Of a DNA stretch of 64,000 nt, positions 10,112-59,064 are shown in pieces. Location of the stretch: assembly GCF_045037415.1 (NCBI RefSeq), contig NZ_CP173439.1. One strand, 5' to 3'. Both the position numbers and the translations under genes were made by a program. The stretch comes from Escherichia coli (GTDB lineage: Bacteria; Pseudomonadota; Gammaproteobacteria; Enterobacterales; Enterobacteriaceae). The notes beneath the pieces are model-generated. The model worked only from the letters and a program-made list of their open reading frames with translations, had not been told where the DNA came from and made no database searches. Positions within the stretch are counted from its first letter, which is position 1, and each line of letters begins with the position of its first letter.

Positions 10112-10260
10112 CAGTTCTGTTCAATATGAAATCACCGTAGTAAGGGGGGCGTGCCCATTTCCTCTAAAAGTCTCACCTTTATTATGTAATTAATTGAGTT
10201 TATTTAGAAAATGTTGCAATTTTAGCATCATTTTTTATTGTTCTTTTTAACCTGAAGTAG

Positions 10261-10297
10261 GGGGCCGCTTGGAATTCGGAAATTTTCCCACGCTAAG
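10261..10297. repeat. Tn21/Tn1721-subgroup-like 38-bp terminal IR remnant abutting IS21 copy 1
   Basis: GGGGCCGCTTGGAATTCGGAAATTTTCCCACGCTAAG resembles the Tn1721 IR as recalled (GGGG...AATTCGGAAA...ACGCTAAG). Confidence 0.4.
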
Positions 10298-10357: not shown

Positions 10358-12327
<1,970 letters not shown>

Positions 12328-28908: not shown

Positions 28909-30878
<1,970 letters not shown>

Positions 30879-32000
30879 GTTGATGTCCTTTCTGGTGTGA
30901 GAACCTTAAGGAAACAACATGTTGGGTGGAGCGGACAATCCAAATGGTGAATTACCGTCTTATATCACTGGCGCTGACAAACAGGGATATTGCGACAATT
31001 CACAGCAATATCGTGCAGGAATACAACACCCTTAAAGGGTATAGCTGGAAATGGCTGGGTGGGGTGTCAGTGGCTTTTCTGGTTATGTTCTGTGTGCTCG
31101 GATGGGGAATGAAAACAATACTCGACAGGAACTACAACGCCACAGCGGCGGTGTATCAGAAAGTTGTGACACTGGAAGATAAACTGGTGGAGAAACCTGT
31201 CACGGGGAAGAGCCGGAAAAACTGACGCGCTTCGCTTGTCCAACGCCTCACGACCCGCGAAAGAATTTCGCGAACCGTTCACTGTTTTTTTCAATATGAT
31301 TCTGTCTGCTTTGGTCGATAAAGCAGACGATAGTATTCCAGCCTTCGTATATATAACGGTACGTGCTCATCAGTAAGAGCTGGCGGTATTGTGTTATCAG
31401 GGGGAAGTTTTTTCAGATACTCACGAAATGCCTGGCTTGATGCCATAAAATCTACAGCTGCATCGATAATATGTGGGATATTTTCATCTAATTTTGTCAT
31501 GATGATTGATCTGATATTATCACGGTTCGTGAATTATAGTATGTCACTATTATTTATGCTTTAGTGAACCAGAAAAAATCCCCCGTTGGTATAGGGGGAT
31601 ATGTAAGGAGAAATAACTTCGCAGGTGTTCTTGTTTGTATTATAACGTGAAAAGAATGCACGCAACTTAATTAATCTGCCGTACTTCCTTTCAGTTTTCA
31701 AGATAAGGTTTATAATAAAACATGGAATGGAAGCAAGCTTTAAGGTTTCAGCTCTAAAATTTTTAATATCTATTAACTAGCTAGTTGTTGTCCTTGTGAG
31801 CATGTTGTATATAAAAGCTAGGATAATATCCTGACCGGAGTATTCATATTCCTTATCCCCTCTGTGTTCTCAGAGGTTTTTTTCTGTATTTAATGATATG
31901 AGCTGGAATGCGATTCCGGCCCCCCCCGTTTACATAATTCTCCCTGACATACGGCACCGGAATCGCATTGATTTTGCATTGCTAATGTCTAACTGTGCTG

Positions 32001-32038
32001 GTGAATGTTGGGGGCAGTTTGGATATCGAAAATTATTG
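32001..32038. repeat. 38-bp Tn3-family-like terminal repeat copy (GGGGCAGTTTGGATATCGAAAATTATTGTACGTTAAGG)
   Basis: Starts GGGG, ends ...GTTAAG like Tn3-family IRs; related copies at 42145 and 56465. Confidence 0.45.
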
Positions 32039-32042
32039 TACG

Positions 32043-32389
32043 TTAAGGTTGTTTTTTGACCTTGTCGGGGTCCGCCTGCGGGCAGTAGAGATCATATAAG
32101 GTATTCAATAACGTCATGATGCGGTTATCCCCGATACGGTAATATACCATTTTACCTGCCCGTCGGGTTCGACCAGCTTCAGGCGACGCATGACACCCAA
32201 CTGCTGAGACAGGGTCGGCTGAGTGATACCGACCGCCGCTTCCAGCTCGGTCACATTCGCTTCCCCCTGGCTTAACTGACACATCAACAATAGCCGGTCG
32301 CTGTTGGCCAGTCCCCGTAGGACATCTGCTGCCCCCAGGGCTGCATTTTTCATATCAGTCTGACGTTTTGTGTCTTCATTCATGGGCAT
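32043..32389 (-). pseudogene. ArsR/SmtB-family regulator (BigR/YgaV-like), apparent frameshift
   Basis: HTH region (NVTELEAAVGITQPTLSQQLGVMRRLKLVE) in one frame and the expected wing (GKMVYYRIGDNRI...LYDLYCP) in an overlapping frame; break near a G-run around 32160..32200. Confidence 0.55.
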
Positions 32390-32510
32390 TGCTGGTTTCT
32401 TATATTATGTATTTTTATATAATATTGTTCAGTATAATGATAGTGGCGTAATTTTGCCACCGTGATCTTCAGGTCTGCAGCGTCCAGCTGGACCGGGTAA
32501 CTAATTATAT

Positions 32511-34208
32511 ATGGCAGATATTTTGCCCCGAGTGAACAGAGAGGATGTAATGAAAATAGTGATTGTTGGTGGTGTTGCCGGGGGAGCATCCGCTGCAGCC
32601 AGGGCTCGTCGGTTATCAGAGGATGTCAGTATTGTTGTGTTTGAGCGGGGAAGCGATGTCTCTTTCGCCAACTGTGGATTGCCTTATCATATAGGCGGAA
32701 AAATTCCGTTACGGCAGTCGCTGATTCTGAAAACCCCGGAGGATTTTAAATCCCGTTTTAACATAGACGTCCGTATCCGTCATGAAGTGATGTCAGTAGA
32801 CCCGGTTAATAAGATGGTGACGGTTAAAAATCTGACCTCCGGGGAGGTCTATACCGAAGAATGGGATCGTCTGCTCCTCAGTACCGGTGCCGCTCCGGTT
32901 GTTCCCCCCTTGCCCGGACTACAGGAAGCGGGTGTCTTTACACTGCGAAATCTTACTGACATGGATGCTATCCAGGCGTGGATTGAGCAACATAATATCG
33001 CTCACACCACGCTTGTCGGGGGGGGATTTATCGGGCTCGAAGTGATGGAGGCACTGAGCGAAAGGGGGATCAGTGTGACCCTGCTGGAGATGGGGGAACA
33101 GGTTATGGCTCCGGTTGATCCTGAAATGGCATCGGCCCTGCATCAGGAAATCAGGAGTCATGGCGTGGATCTGCGTCTCAGAACGGCGCTCACCGAGGTA
33201 CTGCGGACAGAGACGGGATTCCGCGTTGCACTGTCTGACGGTGGGTTTCTGCAGACCGACATGGTTATTCTCGCCATCGGGGTAAAACCTGAGAGCAGCC
33301 TTGCCACAGGAGCCGGGCTCGCCGTGGGTAAACGGGGAGGCATAAGTGTCAATGCCTGTATGCAGACAAGTATCCCTGACATCTATGCCGTGGGGGATGC
33401 AGTTGAAACACCTGACCTTGTCTTTCAGGAACCCGCTAATGTTCCTCTGGCAGGGCCAGCCAACCGCCAGGGACGCATTGCTGCTGATAATATGCTCGAT
33501 CGTCACAGCCTTTACCATGGCAGTCAGGGGACATCCATTTGTAAGGTATTTTCGCTGAGTATTGGCAGTGTCGGGGCGAATGAAAAGCAGCTGAAAGCCC
33601 ATGGTACCCGATACGAGAAGGTTTACGTCCATGCCGCTGATCATGCCAGTTACTACCCGGGGGCAACAATGATCAGTCTGAAACTGCTGTTCAGCCCCGA
33701 TACCGGTAAAATTCTCGGGGCCCAGGCGTCAGGGAAAAAAGGGGTTGATAAACGCATCGATGTCCTGGCTGTCGTACAGCGCGCGGGGCTTACCGTTAAC
33801 GATCTCGAGCATCTGGAGCTGACCTATGCTCCGCCTTTCAACAGTGCAAGGGACGTCGTTAACCAGGCTGGAATGGTGGCGGCAAATGTTATCAAGGGTG
33901 ATACGGTCATCTGTCATGTCCGCGATGTGTTACAACGGGAACCGGGCAGTTATTGTTTACTTGATATTCGTTCTCCTGCAGAACTGAAACAATTTGGTGA
34001 ATATCCTGACGCGCTATCCATCCCTCTTGATTCCCTGCGGGAGAATCTTGATAAGTTGCCTGAAGATAAAGAGATTATTATCGGGTGTCAGAGTGGTCTG
34101 CGGGGGCATGTGGCATACCGTATGCTTCAGTCTCACGGCTTCCGGACATATAATCTGAGTGGTGGTTTTATAACTTGGCAGGCGGTTACGGAATCAATGA
34201 GTCAATAA
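32511..34208 (+). CDS. CoA-disulfide/persulfide reductase with C-terminal rhodanese domain
   Basis: 565 aa; FAD-binding GGVAGG start, pyridine-nucleotide disulfide oxidoreductase core with redox Cys (SFANCGLPY), C-terminal rhodanese with active-site Cys (IIIGCQSGLRG). Confidence 0.85.
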   Translation: MADILPRVNREDVMKIVIVGGVAGGASAAARARRLSEDVSIVVFERGSDVSFANCGLPYHIGGKIPLRQSLILKTPEDFKSRFNIDVRIRHEVMSVDPVNKMVTVKNLTSGEVYTEEWDRLLLSTGAAPVVPPLPGLQEAGVFTLRNLTDMDAIQAWIEQHNIAHTTLVGGGFIGLEVMEALSERGISVTLLEMGEQVMAPVDPEMASALHQEIRSHGVDLRLRTALTEVLRTETGFRVALSDGGFLQTDMVILAIGVKPESSLATGAGLAVGKRGGISVNACMQTSIPDIYAVGDAVETPDLVFQEPANVPLAGPANRQGRIAADNMLDRHSLYHGSQGTSICKVFSLSIGSVGANEKQLKAHGTRYEKVYVHAADHASYYPGATMISLKLLFSPDTGKILGAQASGKKGVDKRIDVLAVVQRAGLTVNDLEHLELTYAPPFNSARDVVNQAGMVAANVIKGDTVICHVRDVLQREPGSYCLLDIRSPAELKQFGEYPDALSIPLDSLRENLDKLPEDKEIIIGCQSGLRGHVAYRMLQSHGFRTYNLSGGFITWQAVTESMSQ

Positions 34209-34486
34209 GAGATGAGGTGCCATACACATGGCACCTCATCTTCCAGATTCATTGAAAACGTATTATATGGAATAGAAATCTACAAAAATAATTAACACCC
34301 TGGATGGTACCCTATTGCGATAATGTGGACTGTTCAAAAAACAGGCTTACCGTACAATAATTCTCTATATCCAAACTGACCCCAATGTTCCTGAATGTAA
34401 ATCTCCGTACAAAGATATCGTTGAGTTTTATATAATTCATTGTTTTTATTGTGTTTTGTTTTTTTTGGTTGTGCTGGTTTGTAGTT

Positions 34487-55797: not shown

Positions 55798-56304
55798 TCA
55801 AAACATGGCTGCCCGCCACAGACGTAACTTCATGCCCCAGTAGCTGGTCCAGCCGCTGGTCGTAGTTACCACCTGCCCCTTCGACACCACCACCAGCGTT
55901 GGCGTGACGCTGATTTCCCAGTTTCGTGATATCTCACCGCCGCTATCATTCACGACGGGGAACGTCACCCTTTTACGCGATAACCAGCGGGAAACCTCCC
56001 CGTCATTACCGGAACGCAGCGCGATGGTCATGACGCTCTCCCCTTCCGACTGCAAACGGGCGACATCCGGCGTGGTGAAACGGCAGATACCGCACCAGCT
56101 CGCCCAGAAGTAGAGCAGCACCGGGCGTTCTTCACTGATCGACGCCAGCGTTACGGTTTCCCCGTCCAGCGTATGCAGCGGCGTGCTGTCAAACATGGCC
56201 GGCATCTGCGGAGAACGCCAGACATCCAGCAGGATTATCACGCCAGCCAGCAGAACCAGTAAGATCGCGCCTTCACGCAGCCAGCGGCGCAGTTTACTGA
56301 GCAT
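55798..56304 (-). CDS. scsD: thiol:disulfide interchange protein ScsD-like (TlpA family)
   Basis: 168 aa; membrane anchor and WASWCGICR CxxC motif; sits directly after an ScsC-like fragment. Confidence 0.65.
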   Translation of the reverse strand: MLSKLRRWLREGAILLVLLAGVIILLDVWRSPQMPAMFDSTPLHTLDGETVTLASISEERPVLLYFWASWCGICRFTTPDVARLQSEGESVMTIALRSGNDGEVSRWLSRKRVTFPVVNDSGGEISRNWEISVTPTLVVVSKGQVVTTTSGWTSYWGMKLRLWRAAMF

Positions 56305-56464
56305 GGGCCACCGCCAGTTTTTCTTTCACCACCGCCTCAAGGGTCTCCCACGATACCGCGCCGGGGATCATCTCGTCGCCAATGATGGTTGCCGGCGTCC
56401 CCTGAACGCCAACCAGCCGGGCGAGTTGCAGATTGGTGCTCAACGTCTCCATGCTTTTCTCATC
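56294..56464 (-). pseudogene. scsC: DsbA-like ScsC, C-terminal fragment only
   Basis: ...GVQGTPATIIGDEMIPGAVSWETLEAVVKEKL is a DsbA-family C-terminus; the 5' part is replaced at the 38-bp repeat at 56465. Confidence 0.5.
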
Positions 56465-56503
56465 GGGGTCAGTTTGGATATAGAGAATTATTGTACTATA
56501 AGG
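56465..56503. repeat. 38-bp Tn3-family-like terminal repeat copy (GGGGTCAGTTTGGATATAGAGAATTATTGTACTATAAG)
   Basis: 38 bp from GGGG to TAAG; forms the junction that truncates scsC. Confidence 0.5.
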
Positions 56504-56757
56504 GCTTCCCCGGCATGTCAACGCCGGTGTTTACGGTTTCTGTCTGCACTATAGTAAAAAAATAAAGGGGAGAGACTGCGGTACTATAAACGGTCATGAT
56601 GAATCGTCATCGATTCGGACCCTGATGAAAGACGCTCGTGAGGCTCTAGTTCGTTAGTCGGGTACACTTGCCCTGTACAATAAGCAGATATACCTCACGG
56701 GGTCTAACCCTTTATCATCAACGAGTTGCAGATCAGATGGTCATACAGCTTTGTACT

Positions 56758-57071
56758 TTAGCTGGCTGAGTACAACCTGAAATCATCACCGTAATGCAAT
56801 GATGCCCAGCACAGTCTTGCATTTTTGGCAGCGATGGCAACAACAGCGCGCCAGTATCCTCTGCGTTCGACCAGTGAGCAGACCCAACGACTGAATAAAT
56901 CAGTCCTTTTCTCCGCCCCGATCAGTACCGAGCGGGCACCCTGAACCAGAAGTGTTCTCAGATACGAATCGCCAGCTTTCGTTATCCTGCCAAGCTTCGA
57001 CTTTCCGCCGCTGCTGTACTGCGATGGTGTCAGTCCCAGCCAGGCTGCCAGCTGGCGCCCATTCTTAAAAT
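56758..57071 (-). pseudogene. IS110/IS1111-family transposase (IS4321/IS5075-like), C-terminal fragment cut by IS26
   Basis: ...NGRQLAAWLGLTPSQYSSGGKSKLGRITKAGDSYLRTLLVQGARSVL is the conserved IS110-family C-terminus; reading frame enters the IS26 IR. Confidence 0.6.
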
Positions 57072-57891
57072 GGCACTGTTGCAAAGTTAGCGATGAGGCA
57101 GCCTTTTGTCTTATTCAAAGGCCTTACATTTCAAAAACTCTGCTTACCAGGCGCATTTCGCCCAGGGGATCACCATAATAAAATGCTGAGGCCTGGCCTT
57201 TGCGTAGTGCACGCATCACCTCAATACCTTTGATGGTGGCGTAAGCCGTCTTCATGGATTTAAATCCCAGCGTGGCGCCGATTATCCGTTTCAGTTTGCC
57301 ATGATCGCATTCAATCACGTTGTTCCGGTACTTAATCTGTCGGTGTTCAACGTCAGACGGGCACCGGCCTTCGCGTTTGAGCAGAGCAAGCGCGCGACCA
57401 TAGGCGGGCGCTTTATCCGTGTTGATGAATCGCGGGATCTGCCACTTCTTCACGTTGTTGAGGATTTTACCCAGAAACCGGTATGCAGCTTTGCTGTTAC
57501 GACGGGAGGAGAGATAAAAATCGACAGTGCGGCCCCGGCTGTCGACGGCCCGGTACAGATACGCCCAGCGACCATTGACCTTCACGTAGGTTTCATCCAT
57601 GTGCCACGGGCAAAGATCGGAAGGGTTACGCCAGTACCAGCGCAGCCGTTTTTCCATTTCAGGCGCATAACGCTGAACCCAGCGGTAAATCGTGGAGTGA
57701 TCGACATTCACTCCGCGTTCAGCCAGCATCTCCTGCAGCTCACGGTAACTGATGCCGTATTTGCAGTACCAGCGTACGGCCCACAGAATGATGTCACGCT
57801 GAAAATGCCGGCCTTTGAATGGGTTCATGTGCAGCTCCATCAGCAAAAAGGGATGATAAGTTTATCACCACCGACTATTTGCAACAGTGCC
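57072..57891 (-). mobile_element. IS26, complete, 820 bp
   Basis: GGCACTGTTGCAAA terminal repeats at both ends; intact tnp26. Confidence 0.95.
57124..57828 (-). CDS. tnpA: IS26 transposase Tnp26
   Basis: MNPFKGRHFQRDIILWAVRWYCKYGISYRELQEMLAERGVNVDHSTIYRWVQRYAPEMEKRLRWYWRNPSDL... (234 aa from the internal Met). Confidence 0.95.
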   Translation of the reverse strand: MNPFKGRHFQRDIILWAVRWYCKYGISYRELQEMLAERGVNVDHSTIYRWVQRYAPEMEKRLRWYWRNPSDLCPWHMDETYVKVNGRWAYLYRAVDSRGRTVDFYLSSRRNSKAAYRFLGKILNNVKKWQIPRFINTDKAPAYGRALALLKREGRCPSDVEHRQIKYRNNVIECDHGKLKRIIGATLGFKSMKTAYATIKGIEVMRALRKGQASAFYYGDPLGEMRLVSRVFEM

Positions 57892-59064
57892 ATTCTGAGC
57901 ACTGTCGCGCTCGACGCTGTCGGCATCGGCCTGATTATGCCGGTGCTGCCGGGCCTCCTGCGCGATCTGGTTCACTCGAACGACGTCACCGCCCACTATG
58001 GCATTCTGCTGGCGCTGTATGCGTTGATGCAATTTGCCTGCGCACCTGTGCTGGGCGCGCTGTCGGATCGTTTCGGGCGGCGGCCGGTCTTGCTCGTCTC
58101 GCTGGCCGGCGCTGCTGTCGACTACGCCATCATGGCGACGGCGCCTTTCCTTTGGGTTCTCTATATCGGGCGGATCGTGGCCGGCATCACCGGGGCGACT
58201 GGGGCGGTAGCCGGCGCTTATATTGCCGATATCACTGATGGCGATGAGCGCGCGCGGCACTTCGGCTTCATGAGCGCCTGTTTCGGGTTCGGGATGGTCG
58301 CGGGACCTGTGCTCGGTGGGCTGATGGGCGGTTTCTCCCCCCACGCTCCGTTCTTCGCCGCGGCAGCCTTGAACGGCCTCAATTTCCTGACGGGCTGTTT
58401 CCTTTTGCCGGAGTCGCACAAAGGCGAACGCCGGCCGTTACGCCGGGAGGCTCTCAACCCGCTCGCTTCGTTCCGGTGGGCCCGGGGCATGACCGTCGTC
58501 GCCGCCCTGATGGCGGTCTTCTTCATCATGCAACTTGTCGGACAGGTGCCGGCCGCGCTTTGGGTCATTTTCGGCGAGGATCGCTTTCACTGGGACGCGA
58601 CCACGATCGGCATTTCGCTTGCCGCATTTGGCATTCTGCATTCACTCGCCCAGGCAATGATCACCGGCCCTGTAGCCGCCCGGCTCGGCGAAAGGCGGGC
58701 ACTCATGCTCGGAATGATTGCCGACGGCACAGGCTACATCCTGCTTGCCTTCGCGACACGGGGATGGATGGCGTTCCCGATCATGGTCCTGCTTGCTTCG
58801 GGTGGCATCGGAATGCCGGCGCTGCAAGCAATGTTGTCCAGGCAGGTGGATGAGGAACGTCAGGGGCAGCTGCAAGGCTCACTGGCGGCGCTCACCAGCC
58901 TGACCTCGATCGTCGGACCCCTCCTCTTCACGGCGATCTATGCGGCTTCTATAACAACGTGGAACGGGTGGGCATGGATTGCAGGCGCTGCCCTCTACTT
59001 GCTCTGCCTGCCGGCGCTGCGTCGCGGGCTTTGGAGCGGCGCAGGGCAACGAGCCGATCGCTGA
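57892..59064 (+). pseudogene. tetA: tet(A) class A tetracycline efflux gene, 5'-truncated by IS26
   Basis: From the IS26 junction the frame reads ILSTVALDAVGIGLIMPVLPGLLRDLVHSNDVTAHYGILLALYALMQFACAPVLGALSDRFGRRP...; about 10 N-terminal codons, the start codon and tetR are absent. Confidence 0.85.

Follow-up and report, generated by a model that had tools for sequence, protein, structure and literature searches.

A remnant of an IS1111-type insertion, probably within a Tn3-family terminal repeat, retains a putative guide-RNA region beside truncated scsC on an Escherichia coli plasmid

Introduction

What truncated scsC on this plasmid, and why does a transposon-like repeat stand between the remnant of the gene and a piece of a transposase gene? 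We addressed these questions in a 64,000-nucleotide stretch of Escherichia coli DNA (contig NZ_CP173439.1), referred to over its full length as the window, which is part of an F-type plasmid of the RepFIB, cjrABC-senB and FTR1 iron-uptake kind. Read on the minus strand from right to left, the locus consists of IS26, a transposase fragment, a non-coding region (NCR), a 32-bp part of a terminal inverted repeat (IR), the scsC remnant and scsD. A first-pass annotation had suggested that an insertion sequence (IS) of the IS110/IS1111 kind was inserted next to a 38-bp Tn3-like repeat that it may have targeted, and that a deletion followed. Our analysis indicates that the scar is very probably an IS1111-type insertion into the IR of a transposon in scsC, and that this insertion was cut by IS26, which left the putative guide-RNA region behind.

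Results

An insertion sequence within a terminal repeat

The 38-mer that directly adjoins the scsC remnant (GGGGTCAGTTTGGATATAGAGAATTATTGTACTATAAG, of the form GGGG…TAAG) occupies positions 56465-56502. It has a second copy on the minus strand at 34346-34383, with 2 mismatches, at positions 33-34; such a copy is not expected by chance (0 matches in 100 shuffles). At these two positions the 38-mer reads TA, whereas the two intact copies in the window read GG or GT. Its first 32 bp (56465-56496, plus strand; GGGGTCAGTTTGGATATAGAGAATTATTGTAC) are identical to the first 32 bp of the intact copy at 34346-34383 and correspond to the outer part of a Tn3-family 38-bp IR, with the transposon interior expected to the right. 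The intact 38-bp GGGG…TAAG copies, together with the tnpA association described below, place the repeat among the Tn3-family terminal IRs.

A megablast search of plasmids identified a complete copy of the IS in NZ_KY416992.1 (40287-41653, corresponding to L001:4038-5404). In this copy, GGGGTCAGTTTGGATATCGAAAATTATTGTAC is followed by an IS of 1,367 bp that runs from TATAAGGGCTTCCCC to GGGGAAGTCCCTTCCATTC, and then by GTTAAG. Beyond GTTAAG lie genes for a 1,012-aa Tn3-family transposase (tnpA) and a resolvase. In the complete loci generally, the missing GTTAAG resumes after an IS of 1,363-1,368 bp. The 32 bp and 6 bp on the two sides sum to exactly 38 bp, so there is no target duplication. By this alignment, the IS was inserted between IR positions 32 and 33 (32/33, the slash marking the cut), within the repeat, and the last 6 bp of the window 38-mer (56497-56502, TATAAG) are an IS end that mimics the GTTAAG or GGTAAG of the IR. 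Since TATAAG belongs to the IS, the 38-mer is a chimera of a 32-bp IR part and a 6-bp IS part. The repeat is therefore present where the first-pass annotation had placed it, but it is not an intact IR, and the IS lies inside the repeat rather than beside it.

The anatomy of the element can be seen directly in the complete copies, which consist of an 83-nt leader, a 340-aa transposase gene and a 261-nt 3' NCR. Of these parts, the window retains the complete 3' NCR (56497..56757, minus strand) and the last 104 of 340 transposase codons with the stop (56758..57071, minus strand). A transposase fragment had previously been noted about 250 bp beyond the repeat, and the fragment itself stands; the intervening stretch of about 255 bp, by comparison with the complete copies, is the IS's own 3' NCR and not a spacer. 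The fragment matches Pfam Transposase_20 (PF02371; E=3e-18), carries a GLTPSQYSSG motif in accord with the IS1111 pattern GL-P----S/T-G, and lines up colinearly with the last 104 of the 340 codons in complete copies; a full-length relative matches NF033542, the IS110 family RNA-guided transposase model (E=2e-105). As the first-pass annotation had also proposed, the fragment is cut by IS26, ending exactly where IS26 begins (57072). In the window, deletion has removed both the N-terminal DEDD/RuvC-like domain and the left end of the IS. Without the catalytic domain and the left end, the remnant cannot transpose.

The right end of the IS (56497..56511, minus strand) comprises a 3-bp extension, ATA, and a 12-bp subterminal inverted repeat (GGGGAAGCCCTT in the IS sense). 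In L001, AAGGGCTTCCCC at the right end pairs with GGGGAAGTCCCTT at the opposite end, with the extensions TAT and CCATTC. Written in transposase orientation, the IS therefore reads GAATGG/AAGGGACTTCCCC … GGGGAAGCCCTT/ATA, with subterminal IRs of 13 and 12 bp and asymmetric extensions of 6 bp on the left (GAATGG) and 3 bp on the right (ATA); the window retains only the right repeat and ATA. Subterminal IRs of about 11-13 bp with extensions of 6-7 bp on the left and 3 bp on the right are defining features of IS1111 (PMC11187229), which this element fits. A longer NCR downstream of the transposase gene is a further IS1111 criterion (PMC11187229), and here 261 nt downstream compare with 83 nt upstream. 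We thus found the transposase domain and motif, the subterminal IRs, the longer downstream NCR, and site and orientation specificity without duplication that characterize IS1111. When the IS ends are joined in silico (…CCCTTATA/GAATGG…), the predicted circle junction contains TTGACA, 17 nt and TAGAAT, a predicted promoter as expected for a circular intermediate.

Target position in other copies

We examined target specificity in six plasmid loci and in 26 stretches from species-representative genomes, the latter obtained by an exact-pattern scan with the IS end using one genome per species. The sampled genera, all Enterobacterales, include Erwinia, Rahnella, Yersinia, Kosakonia, Citrobacter, Kluyvera, Serratia and Buttiauxella. 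Five copies on plasmids, each from a different lineage (the window type, an ISSm1-like copy, a 90.6% E. coli variant, a Salmonella Cubana variant and IS1618) all occupy 32/33 of the same IR in one orientation. Among the 26 stretches, 19 have a recognisable 32-bp outer part of a GGGG- or GGGC-type 38-bp IR, again with the IS at 32/33 in constant orientation. The IRs hit include the main type, a Tn1000-like type (…GAAAACGTAC) and …ATATCCTAC types; one contig end agrees with the Tn3 IR (…AAAACTCAC), and in two stretches the IR was already split by an IS4321-like element. All informative copies thus share both position and orientation within 38-bp IRs. The earlier supposition that the transposase belongs to an IS family that targets terminal repeats holds, as these IS1111-type copies sit at 32/33 of Tn3-family 38-bp IRs.

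One copy lies elsewhere. In E. coli pAW1.7_1 (L006; 1456-1500 and 2864-2908), an IS5708 copy is found inside the IS26 transposase gene at …GAAACCTAC/GTGAAG. This site matches the guide segment described below at only 6 of 9 positions, so the copy appears to be an off-target insertion into a sequence that resembles an IR. IS5708 and IS26 also occur together in a second record (H79).

Several of the sampled loci have more complex arrangements. In Rahnella bruchi (L014, ~11370-11415) and Edaphovirga cremea (L019), one transposon IR is doubly occupied, with an IS4321-like element at 22/23, an IS5708-like element at 32/33, and 10 bp (AATATCCTAC) between them. In NZ_KY416992.1, both terminal IRs of one transposon carry the same IS. 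This Tn3-family transposon (L007, 1-11600) has tnpA, tnpR and a bacteriocin-type export set, namely a CPBP protease, HlyD and a peptidase-ABC transporter, and breaks a heat-resistance locus between a diguanylate cyclase gene and htpX. In Erwinia oleae (L032/L033), the IS right end is doubled or nested (…CATCCTAC/TATAAGGGCTTCCCCGAACAGTCAAC/TATAAGGG…), a pattern that suggests a tandem or partial re-insertion.

The non-coding region as a probable guide-RNA region

IS1111 elements encode a seekRNA or bridge RNA in the NCR downstream of the transposase gene (PMC11187229; PMC11208160). The seekRNA has short matches to both target strands; in other IS1111 members it is known to be made, to bind the transposase and to be essential for targeting and transposition (PMC11187229), and 93% of IS1111 elements have a predicted bridge RNA in their right end (PMC11208160). 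The 261-nt NCR in the window is therefore a putative seekRNA/bridge-RNA coding region, and we searched it for segments related to the target.

Three guide-like segments were found on the minus strand. Segment 1 (RNA UUAUUGUAC; 56675..56683) is identical at 9/9 positions to the IR bases that abut the IS (56488-56496). Across copies, it matches its own flank at 8-9 of 9 positions in 25 of 26 cases, the exception being the off-target copy in IS26 (6/9). We observed four classes of segment 1 (UUGUAC, ACGUAC, UCCUAC and ACUCAC), which track the IR type, and the observed score was reached by only 1 of 10,000 permutations. Segment 2 (RNA ACUAACGAA in the window; 56650..56658) corresponds to the inner IR part and the IS left end. 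Its target in complete copies is CTTAAC/GAA, and most copies read CUUAACGAA; inner flanks of GTTAAG, GCTAAG and GGTAAG are accompanied by CUUAACGAA, CUUAGCGAA and UUUACCGAA, respectively. Segment 3 (RNA UUAUAGUAC; 56581..56589) spans the junction of the IS right end and the outer IR (TTATA/GTAC), and changes to UUAUAGUAG (…GUAG) in IS5708-type copies, whose flank begins with GTAG. As in bridge RNAs, segments of the NCR match the target on both sides of the cut and vary with it.

An RNAalifold comparison of 21 unique homologous NCRs predicts a conserved structured core of two stem-loops, ending in a U-run (56556..56705, minus strand). The first stem-loop has a large internal loop in which segments 1 and 2 flank a small hairpin. 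The stems are kept in 20-21 of the 21 sequences, and three of them show compensatory changes (pairs 14-64, GC/AU; 36-45, GC/AU; and 88-113, UA/UG/CG).

Not all observations favour the proposed insertion and its guidance by RNA, and the following count against them. One mismatch in L014 breaks the segment 2 pattern, the window-type segment 2 (ACUAACGAA) fits its inner flank worse than in the relatives, and segment 3 fails to follow the Tn3-type target in L029. The structural covariation is limited because the sequences are close relatives, and the IS ends, with which the donor-binding segments would pair, are invariant among copies. An Rfam scan of 56300-57100 returned only chance snoRNA-like matches (E≥1), so no curated family covers the RNA. 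The guide RNA of the window-type IS is predicted from its sequence. With regard to the transposon insertion with which the history proposed below begins, no plasmid examined retains the partner IR or the rest of scsC.

We considered whether the site could instead be chosen by protein-DNA recognition of the conserved IR, with the NCR matches being incidental. A protein could read the AC/G.TAAG core, which is always present in the target, and the sequence-based nature of the guide RNA also leaves room for this explanation. However, IR types differ in the 5-6 variable bases beside the core, and the NCR segment varies accordingly even though the transposases share 85-97% identity. Furthermore, related IS1111 members need the NCR RNA for targeting (PMC11187229). 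We consider recognition by protein alone improbable, and conclude that RNA-guided targeting by this IS type is well supported in silico.

Other terminal repeats in the window

The intact IR at 34346-34383 (minus strand) belongs to a separate element. Together with a third, more diverged copy at 32010-32047 (plus strand; GGGGGCAGTTTGGATATCGAAAATTATTGTACGTTAAG), also an intact 38 bp, it bounds an element of 2,374 bp (32010..34383), whose inverted repeat (I1) has 57-nt arms with 86% complementarity. The sequence AATGTT is present as a direct repeat outside this element, at 32004-32009 and 34384-34389, which fits a 5-bp duplication plus one chance base. The cargo is a BigR/ArsR-like regulator gene (32114-32389, minus strand) and a gene for a 565-aa CoA-disulfide reductase with a C-terminal extension (32511-34208). 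Lacking a transposase, the element appears to be non-autonomous, with its cargo mobilised in trans. With a 3,484-bp query spanning the element (30900-34383), coverage of at least 80% was seen in only 26 plasmid records. Guide segment 1 matches each of the element's two IRs, which are intact and are thus empty target sites for this IS type.

The identity of the first 32 bp of the IRs at 56465 and 34346, and the fact that these copies face outward like unresolved cointegrate junctions, raise the possibility that both stem from one event, as the ends of a cointegrate or of a very large transposon, such that a single transposition bounded the 22-kb RepFIB-cjr-senB-FTR1-scs segment. We regard this as very improbable. 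The IR at 34346-34383 pairs with the one at 32010-32047, with AATGTT on both outer sides, and is therefore part of a self-contained 2,374-bp insertion and not the partner of the IR at 56465. Moreover, the two outward-facing IRs have different 5-bp flanks (TCATC and AATGT), and no 5' part of scsC adjoins 34384. The model was rejected on the basis of the third IR and the AATGTT duplication.

The presence of intact IRs also bears on whether the 38-mer at 56465 could itself be an intact transposon IR, with the transposase gene 255 bp inward being a passenger or part of an unrelated neighbouring IS. The 38-mer does read GGGG…TAAG like a complete IR, and in L001 an IS110-type gene lies between IR and tnpA. 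Against this, TA at positions 33-34 is unlike the GG or GT of the two intact copies, and GTTAAG returns precisely at the end of a segment of 1,363-1,368 bp that is delimited by subterminal inverted repeats. The same segment is present in the IRs of at least 4 transposon types and at both ends of one transposon, while empty IRs occur in the same window. An intact IR at 56465 is thus extremely improbable, and insertion of the IS within the repeat accounts for these observations.

A lone IR-like 38-mer of another Tn3-family type (GGGGGCCGCTTGGAATTCGGAAATTTTCCCACGCTAAG) was seen at 10260-10297, and no partner for it was found in the window. It lies 60 bp from one of two IS21-family copies (10358-12327 and 28909-30878). 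The copy at 28909-30878 has a 266-aa IstB and a 299-aa IstA-like open reading frame (ORF) that is overlapped by a 120-aa ORF, which suggests that istA is split or frameshifted; the ORFs of the copy at 10358-12327 are likewise 266 aa and 299 aa.

Relatives of the element

Related copies are labelled by the Prokaryotic Genome Annotation Pipeline (PGAP) as ISSm1 (92.6% nt identity, the nearest labelled relative), IS1618 of Yersinia pestis pMT1 (88.8%) and IS5708 (78.5%). At the level of the transposase, the window type has 96.8% aa identity to the ISSm1-like copy (L002), 94.7% to IS1618, 92.9% to ISCfr26, 87.4% to IS5708 and 37% to IS4321. IS5708, ISEc76, ISSm1, ISCfr26, IS1618 and ISLad6 have been grouped at >70% transposase identity (PMC11187229 source data). 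We attempted to name the element by comparing its identity pattern with the published ISfinder-based matrix. The pattern matches none of the six named members, which makes the element a further sibling of the group; it looks like an unnamed sibling of ISSm1, IS1618 and IS5708, or may bear a name outside the published matrix. Literature searches on ISSm1, IS1618, IS5708, ISEc76, ISCfr26 and ISLad6 returned passing mentions only, in which the target site is never stated.

The first-pass annotation had pointed to the target sites of IS4321/IS5075 for comparison. These do not match: in a plasmid locus, IS4321 splits a Tn21-type IR at 22/23 (CTTAGCGTGCTTTATT, IS, TTCCGTTTTCTGAGACGACCCC) as compared to 32/33 here, although its orientation relative to the IR is the same. 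That the element is an isoform of IS4321/IS5075, which it resembles in being of the IS1111 type and in occupying 38-bp Tn3-family IRs in one orientation, can practically be dismissed given the 37% transposase identity, the different insertion position, the unlike terminal extensions, and the sharing of one IR by both kinds at separate positions in L014 and L019; we ruled out this identity on the first two grounds.

The scsC locus and IS26

The scsC remnant (56294..56464, minus strand) consists of the last 56 codons (56297-56464) and the stop (56294-56296), consistent with the earlier estimate of about 55 C-terminal residues. Compared to Salmonella ScsC (PDB 4gxz), it aligns with residues 137-190 (E=2.8e-25), with 7 differences in 54 aligned residues, and it covers positions 145-189 of 191 of Pfam DSBA. 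The N-terminal ~150 codons are gone, including the CXXC site. No CPYC active-site motif and no further piece of scsC were found anywhere in the window. This copy of scsC is a pseudogene remnant and not a full-length thioredoxin fold with CXXC.

Adjoining the remnant on its downstream side is an intact scsD (55798..56304, minus strand), which encodes a 168-aa thioredoxin-like protein disulfide oxidoreductase. Its ORF matches Pfam Redoxin, AhpC-TSA and Thioredoxin, and in matching plasmids it is annotated as protein disulfide oxidoreductase or ScsD. Having lost its operon promoter, scsD may depend on transcription that is now supplied from the IS/IS26 side. A simple scan for promoters and terminators in the remnant gave no signal above that expected from shuffles and no convincing hybrid promoter. 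It should also be noted that the IS right end contains an outward-facing TTGACA, and that a 75-aa ORF (56294-56521, minus strand) begins within the IS end, crosses the IR and enters the scsC remnant.

On the other side of the transposase fragment is IS26 (57072..57891, minus strand; 820 bp), the sole copy in the window, with terminal GGCACTGTTGCAAA at both ends and an ORF that matches the IS6-family transposase model NF033587. The left and right flanks (region 57064-57899), TCTTAAAA and ATTCTGAG, differ. Since they are unrelated, there is no 8-bp target duplication. To its left IS26 cuts the IS1111-type element and to its right tet(A), which is missing the first 8 codons; an EamA/PecM-like gene comes after tet(A). 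Such a junction pattern is typical of IS26-mediated deletion or recombination.

In the window, we detected no relic of tnpA, tnpR or the 5' half of scsC. The transposon once present in scsC is lost beyond IS26, and its interior is gone in every plasmid examined.

To determine how widespread the scar is, we searched plasmid records. The segment from scsD to the truncated scsC is present at ≥99% identity in 736 records, and the junction of scsC, IR and IS in 662, which shows that the scar is inherited. In contrast, only 16 records reach the IS26 boundary of the window; in related plasmids, IS26 lies 13-16 bp further into the IS, or deeper still. The shared junction and the varied IS26 boundaries suggest a single old event in a large plasmid lineage, followed by repeated nibbling by IS26.

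Discussion

Our data suggest a history in three steps. A Tn3-family transposon with the IR GGGGTCAGTTTGGATATAGAGAATTATTGTACG(G/T)TAAG would have come into scsC of an F-type E. coli plasmid, leaving the last 56 scsC codons beside the tnpA-proximal IR, whether by simple insertion or by a transposon-adjacent deletion. A 1,367-bp IS1111-type IS of the ISSm1/IS1618/IS5708 group would have entered this IR at 32/33, without target duplication and with its transposase gene reading toward the outer GGGG end. IS26 would then have taken away the left end of the IS together with 236 of 340 transposase codons, and with them the inner 6 bp of the IR and all of the transposon interior. The sequence that survives comprises 32 bp of IR, the right end of the IS, the entire 261-nt 3' NCR and 104 transposase codons. 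For the choice of site, the 3' NCR would be transcribed into a seekRNA or bridge RNA, the loop segments of which would pair with the IR on both sides of the cut and with the IS ends, and this pairing would guide the DEDD recombinase. We infer the expression of the RNA, the order of events and the role of IS26 in the deletion from the arrangement and variation of the sequences.

For the window, the outcome is an inactive inherited scar, common to hundreds of E. coli F-type plasmids, which explains both the scsC pseudogene and the end of the region at IS26. There are also consequences for annotation. Calling the 38-mer as a transposon end misplaces the boundary by 6 bp, and the 255 bp that would be called "intergenic" are IS sequence. 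The relatives form a natural series in which near-identical recombinases appear to be retargeted by ~5 guide-segment bases. This is a ready test set for the seekRNA/bridge-RNA model, and also bears on how such ISs disable or mark Tn3-family transposons.

A broader interpretation can be offered tentatively, and we think it somewhat unlikely in its full form. The ISSm1/IS1618/IS5708 group may constitute a second lineage of RNA-guided "transposon-end hunters", hitherto undescribed and independent in its evolution of IS4321/IS5075, that cuts Tn3-family IRs at 32/33 with a guide naturally reprogrammed to at least 4 IR types (main, Tn1000-like, Tn3-like and …ATATCCTAC). The remnant guide-RNA region in the window lies on the same strand as the IS26 transposase gene and downstream of it, and so could be transcribed; it might then act in trans, guiding a related full-length transposase to the two empty IRs of this plasmid.

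As in the Salmonella scsABCD copper-sensitivity suppressor locus, ScsC residues 137-190 are kept here and followed by an intact scsD. Unlike that locus, the plasmid locus has neither scsA nor scsB and adjoins an FTR1-type iron uptake cluster.

Within the ISSm1/IS1618/ISEc76/ISCfr26/ISLad6/IS5708 group, the element shares a 340-aa transposase, a length of 1,363-1,368 bp, and identical ends and subterminal IRs. PGAP-labelled ISSm1-family and IS1618 copies occupy the same 32/33 position in the IR as the window type, whereas the hairpin (GGG/CCC) and the second guide segment of the window IS differ from those of its group relatives.

IS4321/IS5075 are likewise IS1111-type elements with subterminal IRs and no target duplication, and occupy one fixed position in one orientation in the Tn3-family 38-bp IR, with the transposase gene oriented from the inner side outward. 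Partridge and Hall reportedly showed in 2003 that they target the IRs of Tn21-subfamily transposons, and their length is reported to be 1,327 bp, compared to 1,367 bp for the window type. They differ in that they are found in Tn21-type IRs, as opposed to the Tn3/Tn1000-like and related IRs of the window type, and in their terminal extensions (TAATGAG/AGA for IS4321 and GAATGG/ATA for the window type).

With the seekRNA and bridge RNA systems (ISEc11, ISKpn4 and ISPa11; IS621), the element shares short segments that match either side of the target, as well as an RNA whose structure includes internal loops. In contrast to these systems, the RNA described here is deduced from covariation between sequences, and its candidate guide segments also span the junctions between the target and the IS ends.

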